Virus record (IMG/VR): IMGVR_UViG_3300027763_000034
Span: 32,001-96,000 of that record
DNA from: a virus
Strand: one strand, 5' to 3'
Length of the DNA stretch: 64,000 nucleotides
The position numbers and the translations under genes are program-made. The notes under the pieces are model-generated. The model saw only the letters and a list, made by a program, of their open reading frames with translations, was not told the origin of the DNA and ran no database searches. This document shows positions 30,228-58,699 of the stretch, in pieces. Positions within the stretch are counted from its first letter, which is position 1. The number at the start of each line of letters is the position of its first letter.

Positions 30228-30482
30228 ATCTTAATTGTAGCATTTGTATTTTAGTCGACTGCTATTTCATATTTCTAAAAATGTTAATATATTTTTATTA
30301 TGTATGATACATACCTAAAAACAAAACGGACATTTGGGATAGACCGCACATATTAAGCGTGAATGTGTCCTATCTCACAGGATAATTCTAAGATTTATTC
30401 CGACACGCCGAGAGATAACTTGATAAATGTCAGTCCCCTAGTGTAGAGTTATCTTATAACAACAAACGAAAGGAGTCACACA

Positions 30483-33013
30483 ATGACTCAACTTACAGAA
30501 ACACTATACAGCACTATTGTGCACGACTTCCATAATGGTGGGGTCAAGTCCTCTTATGGACTCAATGCCTATACACGCAAGGCTCTATTGCGTGACCTAC
30601 TCTCTAGCAAGGCTTGCTATTGCATAGAGTGCGTGTGTGAGGTAACTCACACCGCATAAGGCTCACGCTACGGCGTGTCGCCTTGATAATGTCAGCCCAC
30701 TAGGCTACAATACTTACTATAACTACTAACGAAAAGGATAGAAAATAAAATGAAGATAACTTACTCACTATGGGACGGCGCTCAACTACTAGGCGTGGAT
30801 TTCACCGCTAATAGCGCAGACGAAATGAATAAGGTCGTAGCAGACCTAATGAAAGTTTCTCGTAATGTCGTAGCACATATGCGAAAGGTAGAGCAGAACT
30901 AATGTCATACGCATACTCATACCAAACTAACTCAATAGATAAATATAACTCTATTCAATCAGATGTCGCAGACGCATACGCATACCTTGATGAAGAAGAA
31001 ACAGAGCAACCCCCTGTTGATGATTTTGATGATGTAGATGATGAAGAATTGGCGCAAGTATTCGCACTAAGTTGGGATAACTAATGAACTTAGAACTAAA
31101 CGGATATGGTCTATGCCTAGATAGCGATTGGTTCTATGTCGCACTAGATTGGAAACTAATAACACTAACCGCCCTAGTGGTAATCGCCTATAAGATTTAT
31201 AAGAGAAAGAAGAATAAGTAATGACTACTAATCGCCTACTAACTACCCTAGTGCAACTGGGTATTGGTATCCCCGCCCTGCTTATGCTACGCCTTGCTAT
31301 AAAAGACTTCTTAGAGAATGGACTAGATTAATGAAATCGGAATTAGAGAGAGATTTAGAAATCAAAGAAAGTTTTATTGATTTACTAAATGATGTTTATC
31401 CTACTGTAAAAATCGGTTACTCTACATTCACACCCGCCGAGATTTTGGAGTGTTGCGATCCTATCGCTTTTTCTATCGGACTAATTGAGCACCAAGATTA
31501 TTTAGAAGAATTAGAAGAAGAATAACGGCGTGTCGGCTTGACAATGTCAAGCTGGCCCGCAAAGGCACGGGGTCGGGCGTGTCGTTACGGGCTTTGCATA
31601 GAACCCCTAGAATTTTGTGATTTTTATCACATAGGTTGAGCGTCTCAGTATTTGGATTTACTGGCTAGTAATTATCTTATGTCAGTGGGTTCGTGTATAA
31701 TGTCTACTATAACAACAACGAAAGAAGGTCAATTCATGAACCTAGATGAATTCAAGGCGCATGTTATCGCCACCCGTCAAGCAAGCAAGGCAGAAGCCTT
31801 GTCAGTGCTATCTGCTACAATGTCAGTATCAACAACAACGAAAGAAGGAAAGTAATGTCAGCAAATGTTTACAATGTAACCGATTTACTAATCGGAAAAA
31901 CTTATCGCTCAAATTCCGTAACTGGAGAAATTATCTCAGCGGAAATTCACCCGCAAGCAATTTGGTATGAAGGCGCAGAAGCGTATCGTGTCCAAATTAG
32001 AAAAAATACTGGCGGTTATACTTATCGCAGTTTGGCGGTAAATAAATGAACACAATGATTGACGAAAATGAATTTTATACAATTCACGAACCAACTTTTA
32101 TGTGTTGTGATGAAAGCCAATTTCGTTATGTGTGTAAAGCACACGGCGAAAGTATGGGTTGCTACTTTTGCGAATTTGACTACTCTAATGATTGCGAGGA
32201 ACAACACTAATGGGATACATTGAAATTTTCCGAATGGATAACGAAGGTGCTGGCTGGGTAGATTTATCCGAAGCAACACCCGATGAATTATTCAACATTG
32301 AATTAGGTCTAGTCAATGAAGGTGCGTTTGACGGCTCTTTATTTATGAATGGGGAAAACGAATGAGCGAAATTGCTGGAATGTGGATTTGCTCTAATTGC
32401 GATACTCTCGCCATTGTGTCAGTGGAAACTGATACAATACTTGTAACACAATGTAAATGCGTAACTAACGAAAGGGAAACTAATGAATAAATACACTTTT
32501 GGCGTTTGGCTAGACATAGACGCAGAGGATGAAAATCAAGCGTTATCTTTATTTGATGAGGTTGTAAAGAAAAATCCTTTTGTTTCAGACTCTTATTGTT
32601 TTGAATGGAAAGAGGTTGCTAATGTATAAAATAACTCTAGCCTATGACGGAAATGCCCCACACTGGCAGGGCGATTACTATGATGAAATGGAAGCGTGGT
32701 CAGCGTTTTTCAAATTCACCGACTGGGGATTTGCTGATGAATTCTCAACTGTAAATATTTACACTCCCGAATTGAAATGCTACACAAAAAACTTTTATCG
32801 TAGCGGAATGGTGGTAGCAAAATGATGACACGCAAAGACTATGTGGCAACGGCAGAAATTCTAAAGTTTGCTAGCGACAAAACGCACCCTGCTTTATTTT
32901 CTAAAATCGTAAATGATTTTGCTGAAATGTTTGCGAAAGATAATGAGCGATTTGATGTAAAACGATTTCACGAAGCGAGTGGATACAATGTTCCTAAACT
33001 CACTTCAAGATAA
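30483..33013 (+). CDS. Array of small (40-70 aa) early-type hypothetical ORFs, e.g. 30483-30659, 30750-30902, 30902-31084, 31331-31525, 31855-32049, 32822-33013
   Basis: Tightly coupled ORFs (TAATG overlaps) behind repeated promoters and RBS. Confidence 0.6.
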
Positions 33014-33255
33014 GGTAAAACGAATTCAGGAATTGCGTCGCAGTAATGCGGCGCAACCTGTTCGTAATAAAAAAAAATACACACGCAAGATCAAACATAA
33101 AAATAAACTTGACAATTAGCCAGCTGGCCCGCAAAGGCACGGGGTCGGGCGTGTCTTTAAGGGTGTGATCAATATCACCCTGGAAATTTGGGCCAGGATT
33201 GGAATATGTCGGTCCATTCTGCTATACTTGCCATTCAACCAACGATTGGGCTCCA

Positions 33256-33975
33256 ATGAAATTAAAACGTTCTAATGATAGAAAGGTGGCTAACCTTGTC
33301 ACAAAAAATGGAAAGCAAGCCGCAATTGCGAACACGTTCGGATTACCTGCAGGAAAGAATTATTCATGCCCTGGTGCCACTAGTATTTGTGAGAGTGTTT
33401 GCTACGCAGGAAAACTTGAAAAGTTATTCCCAGGAGTAAAAACTAATCTGCTACACAATTGGGATCTTCTGCGTAATGCGGATATGGATACAATGCTTAT
33501 TCTATTGGATGAGATGATTGTTGAATTTATTGCTGATTGTGAAAAGAAAGACGCTCCTAAATTATTCCGTATCCACTGGGACGGCGATTTCTTCAATGAT
33601 ACTTATACCTATGCCTGGAAAGTAATTATTGAAAATCATCCCGATGTGCAATTTTGGGTTTACACACGTGTAAAGTCTGCAGCGCTTATTCTAAAGGATG
33701 TATCTAATCTATCTCTTTACTATTCCACCGACGATGAAAATAAAGAAATAGCATTCGATTTGAAAACTAATTCTAAGGTCCGCCTTGCTTACCTAGGCAA
33801 GACATTCGCTGCAACCGAAGACACAATGAAAGAGTTGACTGGTAAGCCTGGTGCTAAGTGTCCTGAGAATATGAAGAGTATTCCACTTATCTCTAGCAAT
33901 GGGTCCGCCTGCGTATCTTGTGGCCTATGTGTATACGGTAAAGCGGATATTAGATTTTCTGCGAGTAAAAAATAA
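33256..33975 (+). CDS. GP88-like protein (radical-SAM-related Cys motif)
   Basis: CPGAT..C...CYA, RIHWDGDF, FWVYTR, C..CGLC; start placed after the promoter at 33207. Confidence 0.7.
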   Translation: MKLKRSNDRKVANLVTKNGKQAAIANTFGLPAGKNYSCPGATSICESVCYAGKLEKLFPGVKTNLLHNWDLLRNADMDTMLILLDEMIVEFIADCEKKDAPKLFRIHWDGDFFNDTYTYAWKVIIENHPDVQFWVYTRVKSAALILKDVSNLSLYYSTDDENKEIAFDLKTNSKVRLAYLGKTFAATEDTMKELTGKPGAKCPENMKSIPLISSNGSACVSCGLCVYGKADIRFSASKK

Positions 33976-34307
33976 TGTATGACGTTATCGGATCCATTCT
34001 TGGAATTGGATTAATTGCATTCTTGTGCTCACCAATTGTGCTAGCAGTGTACATGTGGAATGGTGCAAAATTTGATGATGATAATGATGGAATAGAAGAT
34101 TTACCTAATCGTTGGTAACGGCGTGTCGGCTTGACAAAGTCAAGCTGGCCCGCAATATTGTGGGGGGTTATCCACAGGCTTACGGGAGTTATCCACAACC
34201 CCTGGAATTGTGAGTATTATCACAAAAGCTGCGACACGCCCATAATGGATTAGGTAATGTCAGTGGCAAATGCTATAATACTCTTATCCAACAACGAAAG
34301 GTAACAA

Positions 34308-34777
34308 ATGACACCAGTAGAACACTCACTCAAATTCGTAACTGAGTTTGACGAAACACACCCTATCGCAAAACAATTTCTAAACTTAGATGAACAATCA
34401 CAAATTACAATGCTAGAGTCAATGCTAAAAGATTTATTGGTATCTGCTATTCAACCAGTAATTGACCAAATAAATGAAAATGGCTCTTACGCAATTCTAA
34501 AGGTGGCTAACTAATGGGATACAATACAGCGTTAGATTTAGCAGACTTAGATTTAGAACAAGGTATTGCTATTCACTTACAAAGTAATCATTACCCGCCC
34601 GTTCCTTATTCTATGGTGAAGCCGTGTATCGATGCTATCGATGCTTGGTGGGATGGCGATAGCGATAAACTGATCGAAATGCCTGAAGGCGTATCTTATC
34701 GAGGAGATAAGTTTGCCCCCGCTCACGCAATAATTGACCAACACCACTTACACGCTTGGCTACAAGAAAGTGATTAG
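34308..34777 (+). CDS. Two small hypothetical proteins (34308-34514, 34514-34777)
   Basis: Coupled ORFs with AACGAAAGG RBS. Confidence 0.65.
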
Positions 34778-35217
34778 CATCACACAATAACTTTCTCAAA
34801 TAATGAGATAGGGCTAGACTAATGTCAGACCCCAATGCTACAATACTACCTAACAAAGAAAAGAGGCAAAAATGACAATAGAAGGAAAACTCTATCAGGT
34901 CGGCGATTTATTCACCAGCCTAAAGTCAAAAAAGACAGGTGTTATCAAAGAGATACACCCACAGGCATCTGGCTCGGTGCGTGTGCTACTGGAACTACCT
35001 AGCAAGGAAACTCGCTGGACTTCAGTATCAGCCAAGACACTACTTGGCTAATAAGACGGAGGCATACACCATAATCGGGTGCTAAGCCACGAAACAGGGA
35101 CAGTTTAGGAGAGTATCTAGTCCAATGTCGTAAGTAAGAACTCTCCCCCCTTCGGGGGAAATGTCAGACCCCCCTGCTATACTATCCATAACAACAACCA
35201 ACGAAAGGTAATACAAA

Positions 35218-35634
35218 ATGAGCAGAGCAATAACAGTAAAGGTGGCAACACCAAAGGTAATCAAGGCACTAGAAACTCGTCTAGCAACACTAGAAAAAGA
35301 CTACGCTAGTCAAACAGCAAATGAAGCAAAGTTCCAAAAGGCACACGAAGCGTGGAAAAAGGAAATTGGTAAGTGGGCTATTGCCAACTTCTCAAAGTCT
35401 GAAAACCTACGCACAAACTATCGCTCTTGGAACAACACTCTCAATGTTGATTTTGACATCATCACAAAAGAGGGAACTTTTCCATCAGAACCTGAAAAGG
35501 ATTTTGAGGTTATCCATCAGCACAGTTATCGTGAGATGAAAGAGGACATCACCAATGCTCTCACAATTCTCAAAATGACAGATGAGGAAACAGTAAATGC
35601 TTCTACAATGAAGCAGATTGCTAAGTATCTCTAA
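35218..35634 (+). CDS. Hypothetical protein
   Basis: ORF with promoter 35162 and RBS 35199. Confidence 0.7.
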   Translation: MSRAITVKVATPKVIKALETRLATLEKDYASQTANEAKFQKAHEAWKKEIGKWAIANFSKSENLRTNYRSWNNTLNVDFDIITKEGTFPSEPEKDFEVIHQHSYREMKEDITNALTILKMTDEETVNASTMKQIAKYL

Positions 35635-35682
35635 ATAGGTTTTGGGGGGTTAGCACACAAAGTCTAGACACCTAAACCCAAA

Positions 35683-35709
35683 CAACCTGAGTAAGTTGCC
35701 AAACTGCTC
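35683..35709 (+). ncRNA. H-type pseudoknot motif, copy 1
   Basis: CAAC-CTGAGTAA-GTTG-ccaaac-TGCTC. Confidence 0.55.
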
Positions 35710-35741
35710 TCCTTCGGGAAACTACTAACAAAGGTAATACA

Positions 35742-36002
35742 ATGGCAAATCGTTTCAGAGTAGAAATCTACGATGCTAACAAAGCAAATGACATCACGAT
35801 TTATTCGGATCAAGGTGTTGATAAAGAGTATCTAACTGAATTAGTATTCAGTAACATCAGAAACTTTAGCGGAAAAATAAATGCTTATGTTTTTGATAAC
35901 GTAAAGAAAAAGAAAACAACTGCGATGTTTCTTGATGAGAGCACAGTTGAGTTTAATAAAAATCTAATTAGCAATGCTAAAAAGGTAGAGGTGGGGATTT
36001 AA
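35742..36002 (+). CDS. Hypothetical protein
   Basis: ORF with SD aaaggt. Confidence 0.6.
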   Translation: MANRFRVEIYDANKANDITIYSDQGVDKEYLTELVFSNIRNFSGKINAYVFDNVKKKKTTAMFLDESTVEFNKNLISNAKKVEVGI

Positions 36003-36179
36003 TCTCCAGCTCGGCCCCCGCTTTTGGGGGGTTATCCACAGGTTTACGAGTGCTTGTGGATAACCCTGAAAGTTTGTGAGAATGATCACACCGCACAATT
36101 CGGACAAATGACTAACTAACCTAGACAATGTCAGTGGCAGATGTTATACTTATGACTAATCAAACGAAAGGAAATAAAA

Positions 36180-37184
36180 ATGGCTCATAATCTAGAAATG
36201 GAAAATGGCGAAGTTGCATTTGCACTTCGTGGTGCTCCTGCTTGGCACAATCTCGCTAACCGAATCTTTACACAAGATGAGGAAGTTACAACCGCTACAA
36301 TGCTTGAAGAGGCAAAGTTAGCAAATTGGAATGTTCGTTTATCTCCAATCACTGAGCACATTCCAGAATCTTGGAATGATGTTTCTACCGCATCTCTTGT
36401 CATTCGTGATAACCCATTCAATAAGGGCGTAGATGTTCTCGCAACTGTCGGCAAGCGTTACAAGCCTGTGCAGAATGAAGAATTATTTGCATTCGCTGAT
36501 GCAATTCACGATGCTAATGCTGATTGCCGTTGGGAATCTGCTGGCTCATTGAAAAAGGGTAAAGTAGTTTTCGGAACTGTAGACATTCCCCGCACAATGG
36601 TATTAGACCCACAAGGTGCTAATGACCAAACTAAACTCTATCTAATTGTATGGACATCACACGATGGTTCTGTTGCTGTTCAGGCAGCCGTTACACCCGT
36701 TCGTGTTGTATGCCAAAACACACTAAACCTTGCAATGAAGAATGCTAAGCAATCTTTCAAGATTCGCCACACGCAATCTGTTGAAGGTCGCATTCAGGTT
36801 GCTCGTGAAACTCTTGGAATGGCGCTTGGCTATTTCGATGAGTTCGAAGTTCAAGCAAAAGCACTTTATGCTCAAGCAATTACTGATGCTGAATTCTCTA
36901 AGTTGATTCAGACAATCTATCCTAAGCCTGAAAAAGATGCTAAGGGTGCAATCAAGAAGTGGGAAAATAAGGTCGTTCTAATTGATGACCTTTATCATAA
37001 CTCACCAACTAACGCTACAATCAAGGGAACTAAGTGGGGTGCGTTCAATGCACTAACTGAGCGCCTTGATTATTATCGTTCAGGTCGTGGCAATGGCGAA
37101 ACACTTATGGCGGGTGCATCAGGGTTCGACCCAGTTCTAACCGCAGAAAAAAATAAGTTGTATCGTATGGTTGCAACTTTCTAA
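36180..37184 (+). CDS. DUF932 / TIGR03299-like phage-plasmid protein
   Basis: AWH.L, Y.PVQNEE.F, ESAGSL..G..VF, SHDGS, TPVRVVCQNTL, T.WGAFNA.TE. Confidence 0.85.
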   Translation: MAHNLEMENGEVAFALRGAPAWHNLANRIFTQDEEVTTATMLEEAKLANWNVRLSPITEHIPESWNDVSTASLVIRDNPFNKGVDVLATVGKRYKPVQNEELFAFADAIHDANADCRWESAGSLKKGKVVFGTVDIPRTMVLDPQGANDQTKLYLIVWTSHDGSVAVQAAVTPVRVVCQNTLNLAMKNAKQSFKIRHTQSVEGRIQVARETLGMALGYFDEFEVQAKALYAQAITDAEFSKLIQTIYPKPEKDAKGAIKKWENKVVLIDDLYHNSPTNATIKGTKWGAFNALTERLDYYRSGRGNGETLMAGASGFDPVLTAEKNKLYRMVATF

Positions 37185-37196
37185 AAAACTAAATAA

Positions 37197-37225
37197 AAAT
37201 CCTGAGCAAGATTTAAAACTGCTCA
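37197..37225 (+). ncRNA. H-type pseudoknot motif, copy 2
   Basis: AAATC-CTGAGCAA-GATTT-aaaac-TGCTCA. Confidence 0.55.
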
Positions 37226-37237
37226 CAATTTTTTCTT

Positions 37238-37311
37238 GGTCTGTTAGCTCAGTTGGTTAGAGCGCTACCCTGTCACGGTAGAGGTCGACGGTTCAAGTCC
37301 GTTACAGATCG
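37238..37311 (+). tRNA. tRNA-Asp (GTC)
   Basis: Canonical cloverleaf; CTACC-CTGTCAC-GGTAG; GGTTCAAGTCC. Confidence 0.92.
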
Positions 37312-37415
37312 CAAAGCGCCCCCAAAGGTAAGGGATCAAAAAGTGTGTTACGAATCACAAAAAAAATCCCTGAAAGCTATTGTAAATGTCAGTGGGCTCG
37401 TGTATAATTCTCATC

Positions 37416-38072
37416 ATGACCAACGAACTAGTATCAACTAAGTATACATTTGCCTGTGACCCAGACGAATGCGATGTATTAATAGAACTAACATCATCTG
37501 ACGGATTTGGATTCCCGTCGGGTGTGACTGAAATCACTTGTCCTTGTGGCCGTAAGCCAGTCTTATTGTCAGTGGTCAATGCTACAATTGCTCCTATAAC
37601 CCAAACGAAAGAGGAAAAAATGGAACCAACAACAACACCAATCCCTGAGTCATATAACTCTAATCTATTGGTAACCTACAAAGTTATCCGTGGATTCTCA
37701 GATGCAGAATATGCAACTGATAAAGTTACAAGTCTTGAATGGGACTTACACAATGGACGTCAGGCACAGAAGCACAATGCAGTTCTCCAAGGCAAGATTG
37801 ATTCGGCTAAAGAAATTATCTGCGAGGCATATGCAGACTCACAAGACCAAGATACCTTGCGTGAAATTGCTGAAGCGCTTGGCATTGAACTAATCAAGGA
37901 AGTTGAATGGTCTGCATCTATTGAAGTTAGCGGAACATATTCTTTCAACATTCTTGAGAATGATTATGATATGGACCTTGAATCAGAAATTACAGATGCA
38001 ATCTTTGCTGATTCACATCACGGTAACATTGAAATCAATGACCAAGAAGTATGTAATGTGCGTGAGAACTAA
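37416..38072 (+). CDS. Hypothetical protein with in-frame internal start at 37620
   Basis: Leaderless start after promoter 37387; second promoter 37567 plus RBS 37604 inside the ORF. Confidence 0.6.
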   Translation: MTNELVSTKYTFACDPDECDVLIELTSSDGFGFPSGVTEITCPCGRKPVLLSVVNATIAPITQTKEEKMEPTTTPIPESYNSNLLVTYKVIRGFSDAEYATDKVTSLEWDLHNGRQAQKHNAVLQGKIDSAKEIICEAYADSQDQDTLREIAEALGIELIKEVEWSASIEVSGTYSFNILENDYDMDLESEITDAIFADSHHGNIEINDQEVCNVREN

Positions 38073-38988
38073 TGTACTTTGAGTTGACCGCTCCCGATAG
38101 GCTATCTCTTGAGATGGCTTATTGGGATGCACAAATCACAGGGCTCGACCCTGAATTTATGCCGCCATTGACATTCAACATTGGAACTGGTAGTATTGAG
38201 AAAGTTAGTCGCATTCGTGATAAGTATAATTTAAAAGAATCATACTGGTCAGACAGAGAAGCGACAGGATACAGGGAGAAGTAATGTCAGATTACAAAGA
38301 TGGATTTCAAGACGGGTATAAGTTTGCTCGTGAAGAACTAATGGAAAAGTTAGCAGAGATTGATATTGCTGACATTGACTCTTGGATCCTTGACCGTCTT
38401 TCAGAAATGATTGAGGGTGGCAACCTGTGATGGCTGAATGGCTTAAGTGTGATCAGTGTGCAGCTCAGGCAATGTGGGAAGCAAAGAAAGATGAGATGTC
38501 TCTTTATTTTTGTGGACATCATAAAAACAAACAGGGCGAGTCACTTGTGGACTGGGCCCATGAAATGGTACAATTACTAAACTACGAGCAAGAACAACAA
38601 CTAGCAAAGGCGGAATAAAATGGGCGACAGAGCAAACTTTGGATTCAGAGATTCCAAGGAAAATATTGTATTTTTATATGGACATTGGGCAGGGCACCGA
38701 ATGCTAGAGAATTTAGCGGACGCCGTGCAGATTGCACATCCACGTTGGAATGATGAAGCATATGCTACACGTATTGCTATCAGCCAAATGATTGGTGATG
38801 AGTGGGCTAGCGAAACAGGCTGGGGCATTAGTGTTAATCAATTGGCAGATAATGAACACAAGGTCCCAATTATTGATTGGAAAAATAAAACGTTTACGTT
38901 AATGGAAGAAGACCTGCAGACTGTAGTATTTAGTACAACCTTGGATGCATTTGTGGCCAAGTATTGTAGTCAACTAAGTATGGTATAA
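38072..38988 (+). CDS. Run of small hypothetical ORFs (38072-38284, 38427-38618, 38620-38988)
   Basis: Coupled ORFs; 38620 has MGDRAN...LYGHWAG, a phage-type motif. Confidence 0.6.
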
Positions 38989-38994
38989 TTAATC

Positions 38995-39145
38995 TAGGAC
39001 CTTGGTCCTGGTTTTAATACAGAAATGAAGTGGTGCGTCTAACTAGTCTACGGGCCAGGCGCTAAGTAAAGCGGTTTATTTCTTTCGTTGGAAATCAGCA
39101 GCCATATTCATTAACCCCCCAGCTTGATCTGGGGGGTATTTTTTT
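38995..39145 (+). ncRNA. Candidate ~150-nt sRNA antisense to the early-gene RBS
   Basis: TGGTATAAT at 38981-38989, 5' hairpin, TTCTTTCGTTG seed at 39080-39090, terminator 39114-39145. Confidence 0.55.
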
Positions 39146-39308
39146 GCCCACAAAAGAAATGAGGGTATCATATGTGTTTTACGGATGTCAAGTCAAAACC
39201 CTGAAAATCCCAAGCTTTGAGATCATGTGGCATGAATCACATGCATTTGCTCTTCCATATGTCAGTGGTCTGATATATAATTAGAACATATCAACGAAAG
39301 GATATAAA

Positions 39309-40082
39309 ATGCCAAATTGGTGTTACAACACATTAACTATTCAAGGACCTAAGTCTGAGGTAGATATGATTAAAGATAGATTGAATAAACCTTTTACATT
39401 AGCCCAAGAAACATTTGGTATGGGTGATATATCTACTATGGGATTTCCTACTAAGATTGAACAGGTATCTTATTCTAATCCCGTTTTTTCTTTTCATAAC
39501 ATCCACTCATATAAAGATGACGGAATTACTGATGAGGAATATGCCTGCCAGCCTACACGACTAGGAACAGACACTAGTGCTCCTGATTGGTTTGCTAAAG
39601 AAGTTGCACATGCTAAAACTCAGAAGGATTGGTATTCATGGAATACATCTAATTGGGGAACCAAATGGGATGTTGCTGTCCGTGATGAAGATGAATATCC
39701 TGAAACAGAATTACTTGAATATAAGTCAGAAGGTGATGACAACTGGGTTGTATATAAATATGAAACTGCTTGGTCACCTGCTGTAACTATCTTAACTAAA
39801 CTAAGTAATCTTGTTCCGAACTGCCTGCTCACATTAGAGTATGAAGAAGAAACAGGCTGGGGTGGGGAATATGAGATTGTCCGTGGTGAAGTAAAAGAAT
39901 TGGCTGAATGGGAAAACCGTTGCTATGCTTGCCAGTCTTTTGATACATTGAGTTATTGTGAAGATGACTGTGGAGAATTCTGCTCAGAATGTAATCAAGG
40001 CTCTTGGCAGGATGAAAAGGCAATGGCAGAATGTCAGACCCATAGTGTATTATTAGAGCCTAAAGAAAAGGTGGAGGCATAA
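39309..40082 (+). CDS. DUF1281/YubB-like ferredoxin-fold protein
   Basis: MPNWCYN.L, WY.WN..NWGTKWD, TAWSP. Confidence 0.7.
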   Translation: MPNWCYNTLTIQGPKSEVDMIKDRLNKPFTLAQETFGMGDISTMGFPTKIEQVSYSNPVFSFHNIHSYKDDGITDEEYACQPTRLGTDTSAPDWFAKEVAHAKTQKDWYSWNTSNWGTKWDVAVRDEDEYPETELLEYKSEGDDNWVVYKYETAWSPAVTILTKLSNLVPNCLLTLEYEEETGWGGEYEIVRGEVKELAEWENRCYACQSFDTLSYCEDDCGEFCSECNQGSWQDEKAMAECQTHSVLLEPKEKVEA

Positions 40083-41598
40083 TGGCAAGTTTCTTAGAAG
40101 ATGTAAATCAAATGGTAATTGACGCTGTATATCAAGAGATAGCAGAACAATTACTAGATGACTGGATTAATAATAATCTAAATGAAGGACAGTATTATGC
40201 AGATAAACAATTTGCACAAATGTCAGGAGATAAATTTATCTTTGAGCAATTTAATAAGTTCTATGAACTTAAAGAAGGAGACGATGATTATATGGAGTAT
40301 GACTTATGCTAGGTTATACTGAATCTGATCTAAATGAAATGATTAATGCTGTACATGACGCAAAGCTTTTCTATCTTAGGACCCCGTCCGATTTAATGGA
40401 TAAGTCTTTGCTAACTAATAGTTTGCTAAAGACAAATGATTTCTTGCAAGGACTATGGGCGGAGGGTTACTTTGACCACACTAACTAAATCTTCTAAGTT
40501 CCTAGAATATATGAAGATACATCTAATTAGTCTTAACCAGGACTTAGAAATGAATCCTGAATCTATCAATGTAATTGATATTCCAGGACAAATATATGCA
40601 ACCGAACATTTGTTGTCAGTGGCTACTGATATAATGAATGAAAACGAGAGGATATAAAATGAATTCAGAAGACATTGGGCTCCCGCCCCACTTGCAACGT
40701 TTAGTTAATGCAGGTGTTAATGGATTAGATATAATGCATGGCGAACTAAAGAATCTAATGTTGATTGCCGAAGAGCAATTGGCTTGGGCTCAGGCAATTG
40801 AAGATGAAACCGAAGAGGCAATGGATTCAATGGCACGTACAGAGGCGGAGGGACGACTAGATACTCTAGTTGAACTATATAAACTAACATATGATTTATC
40901 ATTTGCTATAGGAGAAAAGGAAGGGCAAAAAGTATGACATACGAGCCAAGTCTAGAAATCCTGGAAATGGAATACTCTTGCTCACCTGGAGGAGTAGATA
41001 CATTTGAGGTGTATGATAAAACAGATATACCTTTATCTGTACCAATATATGAGACTGAATCTTTGACGGATGCCGTGCTCTACTGTTATAATTTAGGGAA
41101 AGACTTTACTGTCAAGACATTAGCGGAATGGAATGAAAGGGAGTTAGCATATGAAGCCAGCCGATAAAGATAAACTAAACGAATGTTTAAAGATTCTAGA
41201 CACCACCGACCTTGGCTTGTCATTAGTATGGCTGTGGACATGGTCCACAATTAACAACATTTTTGAGGATGAGACCTACAAGCAGAACTGCACCATAGAT
41301 GACATGTGGGACCACCTCTGCGAGGCCGTGGAGGCTGGTATGGGCTTCTCCCTAGAGTACGGGGCGGAACAACATCAGGAAGACGTCCTTGAATGGATGA
41401 TGAATCGTGAGTACATTGTCGACACAATGTTTGAAGAAGAGGAAGAAGACGAAGATGAGGATGAGTGATCAATACATCGATGAGATCCTTAACAGGGCCC
41501 AACAGCTTTTGTGGGGCGGATCAGAAACAGAGAACATCGAAGCACACAACCTTATATCTAATCTAATTAAAGAAAGAGTAGAACAAGTTTCTAACTGA
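40082..41598 (+). CDS. Run of small acidic hypothetical ORFs (40082, 40306, 40436, 40638, 40934, 41151, 41461)
   Basis: Overlapping co-directional ORFs. Confidence 0.55.
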
Positions 41599-41687
41599 GG
41601 GCAAGATTTTTAGTTTACGGTGACTATTTACAAACCCGTGAAAAGTTGCTATAATTAAAGCAAACCGATCTAGAAAGGATCAAACAC

Positions 41688-41837
41688 ATGACAACAAAGC
41701 GTGAATATCTAAAGCAGCAAGGCATCACAGTAGGTGTACGTGGCCGCTTCTCAGGAGCAGCTAAGGTAGCTCTACAAGAAGCTGCAGCAAAGGGAATTAC
41801 ATTTACATCAGAGGCGCCTGCTAACAAGGCCAAGTAA
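41688..41837 (+). CDS. Stand-alone Lsr2-like DNA-binding domain (49 aa; below the ORF-track cutoff)
   Basis: MTTKREYLKQQGITVGVRGRFSGAAKVALQEA; TTTACA-N17-TATAAT promoter, GAAAGGA SD, downstream terminator. Confidence 0.6.
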   Translation: MTTKREYLKQQGITVGVRGRFSGAAKVALQEAAAKGITFTSEAPANKAK

Positions 41838-41843
41838 GCCAGG

Positions 41844-41883
41844 GACGGGGTTAGGGCTTCGTTGGTCCTTGACCCCGTTTCTT
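41844..41883 (+). terminator. Intrinsic terminator
   Basis: ACGGGGTTAGGG...CCTTGACCCCGT followed by a T-rich tract. Confidence 0.6.
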
Positions 41884-41919
41884 ATTTTTGATACAATAGA
41901 CAGTTAGGCGGAGGCGGAT

Positions 41920-42288
41920 ATGAAAACACCAGAAAGCAAAGTAGCAGAATCATTAGTTAATTTAATGGATGACCATTGGTTTAATCCAACAATGTTTGGT
42001 CGATATTTGGCAGAACAGCCAATGTATACACTTGACCGCATTATGGAAATGGTTGTATCGATTATATCAGAACAAGCAAAGATATATGATGTATATCTAA
42101 ATAGGGGTACATCGTCTGAAGGTCTATTACTAGCCAATGAACTGAATGAATGTATCAAAGCATATCAAGAAGATAATAGTTTAATTAATCTTAAGTTACC
42201 TTCTCGTTCCTACAAAGTAGGGACGGTTCCAAAGGAACCTAAAGTTAATATATTTGGATGGAAAGAAGAAACAGATCCATTCAGTTAG
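41920..42288 (+). CDS. Hypothetical protein
   Basis: ORF with GGAGG SD. Confidence 0.65.
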   Translation: MKTPESKVAESLVNLMDDHWFNPTMFGRYLAEQPMYTLDRIMEMVVSIISEQAKIYDVYLNRGTSSEGLLLANELNECIKAYQEDNSLINLKLPSRSYKVGTVPKEPKVNIFGWKEETDPFS

Positions 42289-42289
42289 T

Positions 42290-42840
42290 ATTAGGCATAT
42301 GACAATGAATAGATGAATGCCTGGTTAGATAGATAAACATATCTAGCCCAAATTATCCACAGGGTTATCCACATCCTGTGGATTTTTTGTATGCTGTGGG
42401 CATGTGGGCAACATTTTGCTTTTACGACACATGATCCAAATCCCTGAAATTTCTAGCTCATGGGCCAAATTTTTCATTTACGAAGCCTTGACAAAAATCC
42501 CTGAAAATGCTACACAATATGTCTAAATAGATAATTATACATATAGAATGTCGACAAATGTGTAGAGAATATGGCAAAATAAGCAAAAATCGCTCCATAA
42601 ATCTATTGACAAATATGGATCAATATGCTGCTATATATGGCTATTGACATTACGTTTAAGATGGGGTATGCTCAATTACATATGTATGTTTAACTATATA
42701 TAACTATAGTATATGATATGCTATCTATAGTATAAATTCTCCACTATGCTCCACTTTACTCCACTATATAAGCCTTCTAAGGGCTATATGAGGCTGGATA
42801 AATGGGAGGGGGATATAGGAGTTAGGAGCTAATTTATTGC
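42290..42840. other. Candidate replication origin / control region
   Basis: ORF-free convergent strand switch; DnaA boxes at 42353 and 42365; AT-rich tract; CTCCACT x3 at 10-bp period. Confidence 0.4.
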
Positions 42841-56789: not shown

Positions 56790-58184
56790 CTAGTCCTCAT
56801 CGGAATGAATTTCTATATGAGTTAATTTAAGCAAAGTTCCCTCTAATTCAGCCTTGACCCGAATCAATTCCTGAAGGGCTTCATAGTACTTATCTTTCCA
56901 TTCATTTAAATCTTTTTCTAATTGGTACAATTTAATCTGAAGGTCCTTGATTTCTAATAAAAGCTTATCGTGGGCTTTTTCTGCCAGACGCTCTATTTTT
57001 TCCTTTTTAGATCTTCTGGCGCTAAATTGCGCTGTAAGCAGACCGCTGATAGCTGCTGCAAAGAGAGTTATTATTATCTCAGTTAGGGGAATATTCATTA
57101 TATGAATATTATACCGTAATATCTATATTAAATTAATAATTCAGAAGCCGTTATGTCTGGACCAGCGTATTTCTTTTTAGAAATAAACTCTTTTACATGA
57201 TCTGATCCGTATTGTCTTCCTGCCAATATTACAGTCCATCTTGGCTCAAATTTATTGTCTGAGCATGTCTTGCATAGCAACAAATTAATTGGAAGTATTA
57301 CTGATTTCTTTAATGATAATTCATTTTTGCTCTTATTACAAGAATAACATAGCACTTTATCCATTATTCCACCGCCTTTGTCATTGAAGATTTGCAGTTA
57401 GCAAAAAATCTTTCTGGGTCAAACCTGTAGCTGTCATGAGAGAAAAGTAGTGCGAATTGTCTTACCAGCTCATTATAAACTTCTTCTGTCATTCCTTCTT
57501 TTGCCTCAGACAAAATTCTTGCTGCAATATAGTACTGATGTCTCTCAAATACACACTCTCCAGCCATTGGTGCATGAAGCACTTTTTCTTCAATATCTCC
57601 ATTGGTCATGTACAAAGTAACTGTTAAAAACTTTTTTGCAAATCCCCAGTCTTGATATTCATTATATGCATTTACTGCATCTATTGGACTTGAGAACCTG
57701 TATAAAGATCTGTGCGGAGTCTCTCCATCTCTTGATATGCCAACCATGAATGTATTGTTTTTTGTTTTATCATATCTGTTTGCATGCCATTTTTCTAAAT
57801 TATCTACTATGTTTTGATTTACTGGAGCAATCCTATGAACTCTTGGTTGCTCCTTTGGCTGATCGTAGTTCATCTTCTTCCTCCTGGCTTTCCTTCAAGC
57901 TCTACTCTTACTCCGTATGATTCCAAAATATTTTTTACCATTTCTATATATTCTATTACTCTAACTCTCATTGAGCCATCGTATTGTGAAAAATTATCTT
58001 CATATAGCCTAATTGCTAAAAATTCTGGATACTTTACTATATCCATTTCAAGTGTTGGTGTTGGTTTTTTTATCTCTCTTATTTTAAGAGCCATTTCTTT
58101 GTTGTAGAATGTTGGTTTGTTTGGCTCACCAGTCCATTCATTGATTCCATACTTAAAGTGATCTTTATTCTTATCAATAAACAT
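56790..58184 (-). CDS. Four hypothetical ORFs (56790, 57128, 57364, 57870)
   Basis: ORF track; coupled starts and stops. Confidence 0.55.
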
Positions 58185-58485
58185 GCTTTTCCTTTATACG
58201 TCTCCAGACATCTTTTGTCTTATGGGCATTTCTTAGTTTATCATGGGAGCCAGAGTTTAAATAAACCCCTCCCCAGACACCATAATCACTATTGGCAACC
58301 CCATTATCATAGCATAGCTTTATGACTGGGCATGACAGGCATGCCTCATCAATACTTTTTGCTATGTTAACATCAGCCTCATATTTATCAAAAAACAGAT
58401 TAGTATCCATTCCAAGGCACAACGCAAGCTTATACCAATCTACATTATCTTCATCTACGTTTAAACTATTTAAAATATTTGACAT
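58174..58485 (-). CDS. whiB: WhiB family Fe-S transcription factor
   Basis: W..LALC...FF...C..CPV...C...GVWGG; probable start MSNILNS. Confidence 0.85.
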   Translation of the reverse strand: MSNILNSLNVDEDNVDWYKLALCLGMDTNLFFDKYEADVNIAKSIDEACLSCPVIKLCYDNGVANSDYGVWGGVYLNSGSHDKLRNAHKTKDVWRRIKEKHVY

Positions 58486-58699
58486 ATCGTTTTGGCAGTT
58501 TCCAGATTCCTTCACGGCTGACAGAAATCTTTTCTGCCTTACCCCAAGCATCTTTTCTATACATTCCCTTTAAGTCAGTATAGCCGCCACTATCTTTTTT
58601 CCAAATTACAAGATCATAGTTGTTCCAAAATGATTCTTGTATCTTTGTGCGAGATCTTTTAATAAAAATCTCAACACCTTTCTCCGTTAGATGCAACAA
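58466..58699 (-). CDS. Hypothetical protein
   Basis: FWNNYDLVIW...G.Y...WG. Confidence 0.55.
   Translation of the reverse strand: MLHLTEKGVEIFIKRSRTKIQESFWNNYDLVIWKKDSGGYTDLKGMYRKDAWGKAEKISVSREGIWKLPKRYVKYFK

Follow-up and report, generated by a model that had tools for sequence, protein, structure and literature searches.

An array of predicted PafBC-type promoters in the small-gene block of an IMG/VR phage genome

The closest described relatives of the element considered here are the RecA-NDp promoters of actinobacteria, for which Gamulin et al. (2004) reportedly gave the original motif tTGTCRgtg-8nt-TAnnnT. Chromatin immunoprecipitation sequencing of the WYL regulator PafBC yielded the consensus tGTCgg(N10)tA(N3)T, composed of a -26 element and a -10 element without a -35 motif, and cryo-electron microscopy placed PafBC between sigma-A region 4 and the DNA, where PafB contacts positions -23 to -28 and reads a GTC triplet via R46 and R50 (PMC8635444). 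PafBC needs single-stranded DNA (ssDNA) of at least about 6 nucleotides (nt), and longer ssDNA activates more (PMC11804915). This PafBC-type 'sigma adaptation' is so far known solely for host DNA-repair genes. The subject of the present analysis is an array of sites of the form TGTCRG-N10-TANNNT in a 64,000-nt stretch of viral DNA (hereafter the window), which comprises bases 32001–96000 of the 116,155-bp IMG/VR record IMGVR_UViG_3300027763_000034, rated complete by CheckV. The first-pass annotation of this DNA had assigned the sites to PafBC and knew of no phage that uses such promoters, and no description of phage PafBC-type promoters was found in the literature. A paper by Rafique et al. 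(2025, ACS Infect Dis), cited in PMC12848934, reportedly deals with PafBC and mycobacteriophage resistance.

The TGTCRG promoter array and its conservation

A scan of the window for TGTCRG-N10-TANNNT found 16 matches, all on the plus strand and all inside 30428–40635. As a control, 100 dinucleotide-preserving shuffles of the window gave a mean of 1.16 and a maximum of 6 matches, and none of the 100 reached 16. The remainder of the 116,155-bp genome contributed a single further match, which is weak (genome position 114848), so that the earlier impression of a motif restricted to this block was borne out; the 15 coordinates listed in the first-pass annotation were also all correct, with 33207 as the sole TGTCGG copy. 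Counted without the -10 element, TGTCAG occurs 18 times on the plus strand of the 10-kb block versus 12 times in the other 106 kb. The sites belong to a plus-strand block of about 12 kb with some 30 small genes, mostly of unknown function, which runs up to a terminator at 42355–42383. The individual matches, with the start codon and the product length in amino acids (aa), are as follows.

30428–30449, plus strand: promoter 1, TGTCAG-N10-TAGAGT with TTGATA 18 nt before the -10; ATG 30483 (58 aa)
30690–30711, plus strand: promoter 2, TGTCAG-N10-TACAAT with TTGATA 17 nt before the -10; ATG 30750 (50 aa)
31680–31701, plus strand: promoter 3; first ATG 31736
31800–31821, plus strand: promoter 4; ATG 31855 (64 aa)
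32417–32438, plus strand: promoter 5; ATG 32483 (48 aa)
33207–33228, plus strand: promoter 6, with TGTCGG; ATG 33256 (239 aa, Pfam GP88 family)
34258–34279, plus strand: promoter 7; ATG 34308 (68 aa)
34823–34844, plus strand: promoter 8; ATG 34872 (59 aa)
35162–35183, plus strand: promoter 9; ATG 35218 (138 aa)
36129–36150, plus strand: promoter 10; ATG 36180 (334 aa, DUF932 / TIGR03299 phage-plasmid-like protein)
37387–37408, plus strand: promoter 11; ATG 37416, 7 nt past the -10 (218 aa)
37567–37588, plus strand: promoter 12, within the 218-aa gene; in-frame ATG 37620 (150-aa nested form)
39260–39281, plus strand: promoter 13; ATG 39309 (257 aa, DUF1281_C / Api92-like domain)
40032–40053, plus strand: promoter 14; ATG 40082 (76 aa)
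40614–40635, plus strand: promoter 15; ATG 40659 with Shine-Dalgarno sequence (92 aa)
40221–40242, plus strand: sixteenth pattern match, inside an open reading frame, with the weak -10 TATCTT and without the leader

The match at 40221 is probably due to chance, given its intragenic position, its poor -10 (TATCTT) and the missing leader. The other 15 elements are almost certainly real promoters, and they are predicted to form one temporal class.

Several features unite the 15 sites. The TGTCRG box with its GTC core is present in all of them, at exactly 10 nt from TANNNT, and there is no -35 consensus; a hexamer resembling a -35 box was seen in only a few copies (30428, 30690 and 36129). The sites can thus be described as hybrids in which TGTCAG at -28 to -23 replaces the -35 box in front of a near-consensus -10 (TATAAT, TACAAT, TATACT), which is extended by a canonical TGn in 9 of the 15. 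Positions +7 and +8 after the hexamer are G or C throughout (TGG at eight sites, ACC at three, TCC at two, and TGC and CCC at one each). At 14 of the 15 sites the start codon follows 23–44 nt past the -10, the exception being 37387, and most sites share an A/C-rich leader (..AACAACGAAAGG..) with the Shine-Dalgarno sequence GAAAGG(A) at its end.

To follow the array through related viruses, IMG/VR was scanned for the combination of box, -10 and leader. At least 120 loci were found, holding at least 827 box-plus-(-10) sites, of which at least 760 are distinct, and within each locus the sites always lie on one strand. A logo was made from the 760 distinct sites, a set itself selected on the box. 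The three positions ahead of the box are A or T, the fifth base of the box is A in 86%, +6 is T or A, and +7/+8 are G or C in 92%; the -10 is preceded by TG, and there is no -35 signal and nothing resembling TTGACA. A second set was defined independently of the box, by TAYAMT plus leader only (about 437 sites), and the hexamer exactly 10 nt upstream was then read. It was TGTCAG in 369, TGTCGG in 53, another TGTCnn in 7 and unrelated in about 8. TGTC at exactly 10 nt was therefore kept in 429 of about 437 sites (about 98%) while the sequence of the spacer varied freely, which argues for strong selection on both TGTC and the spacing. This invariant core agrees with the readout of GTC by R46 and R50 of PafB (PMC8635444).

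Early-block proteins of this phage were shared, at 30–100% identity, by 118 of the 120 loci among the matches listed; of the other two, one is an array edge and one a chance match. The array pattern had 0 matches in Streptomyces phage BillNye and 0–6, about the control level, in nine further cultured actinophages (Peebs, Peregrin, Yasdnil, SCentae, Flabslab, KidneyBean, MortySmith, Papyrus and DrLupo), which are phages of Streptomyces, Rhodococcus, Gordonia, Mycobacterium and Microbacterium.

The phage, its likely hosts and the reading of the box

The phage has a G+C content of 37% and encodes tail fibres, a portal, a prohead protease, a capsid protein and a tape measure of 2,723 aa, together with ribonucleotide reductase, DnaE, DnaB and a full-length RecA (genome 111690–112694, minus strand). 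WhiB is encoded at 58174–58551 of the window (minus strand). Both WhiB and Lsr2 are characteristic of actinobacteria and of the phages that infect them. Portal and DnaE share about 57% identity with their counterparts in Streptomyces cluster BE phages (family Stanwilliamsviridae), and no near-identical cultured phage was found by megablast. Based on WhiB, an Lsr2-like protein and the identity of portal and DnaE to Stanwilliamsviridae, the virus is classed as an actinophage; it is a lytic-type siphovirus of about 116 kb. Its proteins fall into 90%-identity clusters of 344–570 members, spread over many metagenome contigs, and the lineage is therefore abundant. Neither the WhiB gene nor the RecA gene of the phage has a PafBC-type box.

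A scan of 185,579 species genomes with the composite pattern gave mostly single chance matches. Array-bearing contigs were found in metagenome-assembled genomes (MAGs), namely three of Actinomycetota, one of Bacteroidia (EUL_060) and one of Polynucleobacter, with three, three and one loci, respectively. This occurrence of phage contigs in MAGs of several phyla looks like contamination during binning, and the low-G+C Bacteroidia bin is the one most affected. With sizes of 1.3–1.7 Mb, the three Actinomycetota genomes may belong to the freshwater acI / Nanopelagicales group, which such small genomes would fit.

All three Actinomycetota genomes have boxes of their own, directly preceding LexA boxes (TCGAAC-N4-GTTCG), and one of these stands before recA (TIGR02012, E = 7.5e-173). 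The recA promoter in the likely hosts reads TGTCAGTGG-N7-TATCTT and is followed by the LexA box. In one of the genomes, two adjacent WYL genes are followed by tatC (pafB-pafC-tatC); they match the M. smegmatis chains of 7P5X (PafB 3.9e-39, PafC 2.6e-30), and the PafB of the likely hosts retains the recognition helix RMFERDK with its R46 and R50. The survey was extended to the taxonomic order of this genome, whose members have genomes of 1.1–2.2 Mb. Promoters with box and LexA box, one to three per genome, were present in 57 of 61 and then in 140 of 151 genomes, with 0 in the reversed control, and a PafB homologue was present in 101 of 101. pafBC, whose presence in candidate hosts the first-pass annotation had named as a check of its proposal, is found in these likely hosts, but the assignment of the phage to them is tentative.

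The host boxes have the signature of the phage boxes, i.e., TGTC(A/G)G followed by any base (mostly T) and two G or C. Their -10 boxes are weak (TACCTT, TATTTT, TATGGT), and a CTTGC word is kept at the -35 position. Elsewhere in the host genomes the box occurs about as often as its reversed control, and the likely hosts therefore do not use it as their general type of promoter. Taken together, the host promoters are merged ones, with a PafBC-type box, a weak -10 and an overlapping LexA box before recA and one or two other genes. Two MAGs additionally have a box without a LexA box, placed 6–7 nt ahead of the start codon of a small Cys-rich protein, a spacing suggestive of leaderless initiation; an ATG 6–7 nt past the -10 is found both at these small host genes and at phage position 37416.

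The most economical explanation of these observations is that the phage promoters are read by the PafBC of the host; it is very unlikely that an unrelated reader would match the 6-mer, the exact spacing of 10 nt and the flanking signature by coincidence. The probability of this reading is estimated at roughly 65%. The geometry of the phage sites is identical to the published tGTCgg(N10)tA(N3)T, as the first-pass annotation had recognised (PMC8635444). Mechanistically, constitutively present host PafBC would recruit the host RNA polymerase to the genes of the block by sigma adaptation, in which PafBC with bound ssDNA slots in between the DNA and region 4 of sigma-A while the helix-turn-helix of PafB reads the GTC core. 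The commonest phage form, TGTCAGTGG, also fits the RecA-NDp motif that Gamulin et al. (2004) reportedly gave. Expression of the block would be started or boosted whenever ssDNA appears in the cell, whether from resection of the incoming genome, from phage replication or recombination or from prior UV damage. The actinobacterial LexA box TCGAAC-N4-GTTCGA was not found in the window with up to 2 mismatches allowed, and since the LexA operator of the host boxes is missing there, the phage sites would escape repression by LexA. Some basal activity independent of PafBC is probable in view of the strong -10.

Several points weigh against reading by host PafBC. With a near-consensus, often TGn-extended -10, RNA polymerase with sigma-A might need no activator at all. 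The upstream flanks differ, being A/T-rich in the phage and carrying the -35-like CTTGC in the host. All arrays found come from one broad phage lineage, without the convergence between separate lineages that would speak for a host factor, and the ten cultured actinophages lack such arrays although their hosts have PafBC, too. The host is itself inferred, and binning alone is not decisive, as array contigs were also binned into the Bacteroidia and Polynucleobacter MAGs. Finally, the 'early' timing of the block is inferred solely from gene size, dense promoters and divergent layout.

An alternative would be a phage-encoded DNA-binding protein unlike PafB that reads TGTCAG, either as an activator or as a repressor that closes the block. 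An activator of this kind might enter the cell together with the DNA or be expressed from the few canonical promoters, and the likeness to the host box would then be mimicry or coincidence. Phages commonly own class-specific promoter elements, and this phage has a second one, AGTCAACTAA (see below); moreover, every array belongs to one lineage, and most proteins of the block are of unknown function. One block protein has a weak helix-turn-helix-like stretch, whose match to sigma region 4 (11.8 bits) falls short of significance. However, such a reader would have to coincide by chance with the host promoters in the 6-mer, in the spacing of exactly 10 nt and in the signature at +6 to +8, and should the block be the first to be expressed, no protein of the phage would yet be present to read it. 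Searches of the phage genome gave no WYL domain, no PafB homologue, no match to MotA and AsiA (PF09158, PF09010) and nothing above threshold for sigma homologues, sigma region 4 or HTH_11, so that the phage-encoded PafBC mimic considered in the first-pass annotation found no support at the sequence level. A phage-encoded reader is the main rival explanation and is judged unlikely.

A further possibility is that sigma-A RNA polymerase initiates alone via the extended, near-consensus -10 and that TGTCAG is dispensable for initiation, serving, for example, to titrate PafBC-RNA polymerase away from host repair or defence genes or to fine-tune expression. TGn together with a good -10 in 9 of the 15 sites and TTGATA at 17–18 nt in two copies would be in favour of this, and actinobacterial promoters often have no -35 consensus. 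The retention of TGTC at exactly 10 nt in about 98% of the 437 anchor-defined sites speaks against it, as it indicates strong selection on an element positioned relative to the -10. Simple titration is made less likely by the finding that PafBC alone has no detectable specific binding to the motif in vitro (PMC6789036). Initiation by sigma-A alone is considered quite improbable. That the repeats are a functionless by-product of cassette duplication, as the common leader of the cassettes might suggest, is next to impossible, because box, spacing and -10 are kept in 760 distinct sites though spacers and flanks have diverged, in genomes whose early proteins are 30–100% identical, a conservation pattern that contradicts it.

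Other promoters and a non-coding unit in the block

Besides the array, the following features were annotated in or near the block.

41627–41655, plus strand: canonical -35/-10 promoter TTTACA-17-TATAAT with TGn and without TGTCAG, before the 49-aa Lsr2-like gene 41688–41837
41869–41897, plus strand: canonical -35/-10 promoter TTGACC-17-TACAAT with TGn and without TGTCAG, before the 122-aa gene 41920–42288
42355–42383, plus strand: intrinsic-terminator-like hairpin with T run, ending the plus-strand block
37238–37312, plus strand: tRNA-Asp(GTC) inside the block
Genome positions 107192 (outside the window), 83374, 76015, 62260 and 59563, minus strand (the last four being 51374, 44015, 30260 and 27563 of the window), and window position 38968, plus strand: AGTCAACTAA-type promoters
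38968–39146, plus strand: conserved non-coding unit that lies within the block and has a separate promoter, AGTCAACTAA-N3-TGGTATAAT without TGTCAG, and a terminator at 39114–39137

The 49-aa protein has an Lsr2-like DNA-binding domain (phrog_6269, E = 3.5e-7), and the 122-aa gene is the final plus-strand gene ahead of the terminator at 42355. Several minus-strand genes are preceded by another upstream word, AGTCAACTAA, 3–8 nt before an extended -10; with the forms AGTCGACTAA and AATCAACTAA included, the distance to TGnTAnAAT varies over 3–14 nt. This word may characterise a class of middle or late promoters specific to the phage. When one mismatch was allowed, AGTCAACTAA was not enriched genome-wide (14 observed versus 13 expected), and only the copies adjoining an extended -10 look meaningful. 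As other genes of the phage use canonical -35/-10 promoters or AGTCAACTAA with an extended -10, TGTCAG marks one of at least three promoter classes.

Promoter 11 differs from the others in its distance to the start codon. Because the ATG at 37416 lies just 7 nt past the -10, its mRNA is probably leaderless. The 218-aa product (37416–38072) has a Cys-rich N-terminus and an acidic C-terminus, and its full-length form is conserved in relatives; the internal promoter 12 would yield the nested 150-aa form. The 11-mer AATCCCTGAAA was found in three exact copies at 37365, 42439 and 42496 of the window (plus strand) and in a near copy at 39196, in non-coding stretches beside promoter 11 and past the block terminator; its count alone is not significant (4 matches versus 1.55 expected).

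Searches of the block for known RNA families returned the tRNA only. The non-coding unit at 38968–39146 has 14 homologues with 82–95% identity, in which compensatory changes occur in the terminator and in the 5' hairpin, and its fold z-score is only -2.3. A 13-nt stretch of it, TTTCTTTCGTTGG, is complementary to the common leader plus Shine-Dalgarno sequence and is invariant in 15 of 15 aligned sequences. An earlier annotation had described this anti-leader stretch as displayed in a loop, which could not be confirmed, as TTTCTTTCGTTGG is partly paired in the minimum-energy fold. The unit is a candidate antisense RNA that could shut off the block post-transcriptionally.

Significance and comparison with known systems

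Put together, these elements allow a tentative and rather speculative picture of the infection. An abundant lineage of lake actinophages would have dropped -35 recognition in its first block and would use PafBC as an early-gene activator, so that some 30 genes for takeover or anti-defence are switched on, outside the control of LexA, by a signal of attack on, or replication of, the incoming genome; the antisense RNA would later shut them off. If this is true, no virus before this phage would have been known to rely on sigma adaptation and on a WYL sensor of its host. It would represent a new viral route to sense or exploit the DNA-damage state of the host, via an activator instead of LexA and in a lytic-type instead of a temperate phage, and it would bear on the infection dynamics of very abundant, sunlight-exposed freshwater actinobacteria. 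In addition, hundreds of strong PafBC-type promoters would become available as a natural set for dissecting the mechanism.

The PafBC/RecA-NDp promoters of Mycobacterium and other Actinobacteria have the same box at -28 to -23 and the same 10-nt spacing (PMC8635444, PMC6789036, PMC11804915). Also shared are the lack of a -35 consensus, the invariant GTC core and the T followed by G/C after the box, and the likely hosts have a PafB with R46 and R50. In contrast to the host promoters, the phage sites form a 15-copy array before small non-repair genes, their -10 is near consensus with TGn whereas that of the host is weak, and they have no LexA box and an A/T-rich upstream flank; their dependence on PafBC is a prediction of the present analysis.

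Other WYL regulators, namely BrxR, CapW, DriD and DdaA, have been tied to phage defence or DNA damage (PMC9122601, PMC11662680, PMC12392091). They resemble the system proposed here in that ssDNA-sensing WYL proteins tie DNA damage and phage infection to transcription. However, they control host defence or repair genes, none has been reported to serve a phage's own genes, and DdaA binds approximately 50 bp upstream, without a -26 element (PMC9122601, PMC11662680, PMC12392091).

The middle promoters of phage T4, which are activated by MotA/AsiA in a process called 'sigma appropriation', offer a mechanistic parallel. There, too, an activator box at around -30 to -26 replaces the -35 element in front of a normal -10, and the activator bridges the DNA and sigma region 4, as PafBC would. 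T4 supplies MotA and AsiA itself and remodels sigma, whereas in the present phage no gene for MotA, AsiA or a WYL protein was found and the box is that of the host.

Phage and prophage genes under control of the host SOS repressor LexA, such as tum of coliphage 186 and those of CTX-phi, are likewise cases in which a mobile element couples its expression to a DNA-damage regulator of the host. These cases involve de-repression, usually of one switch gene, in temperate phages; here an activator-type box is found at 15 promoters of a phage that appears to be lytic.

Frpo-type single-strand promoters in the leading regions of conjugative plasmids tie the genes expressed at first entry, some of them anti-defence genes, to ssDNA, and DUF932 and DUF1281-type proteins occur in both settings. 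In the plasmids the ssDNA itself folds into the promoter, whereas in the phage ssDNA would act in trans via the sensor of the host.

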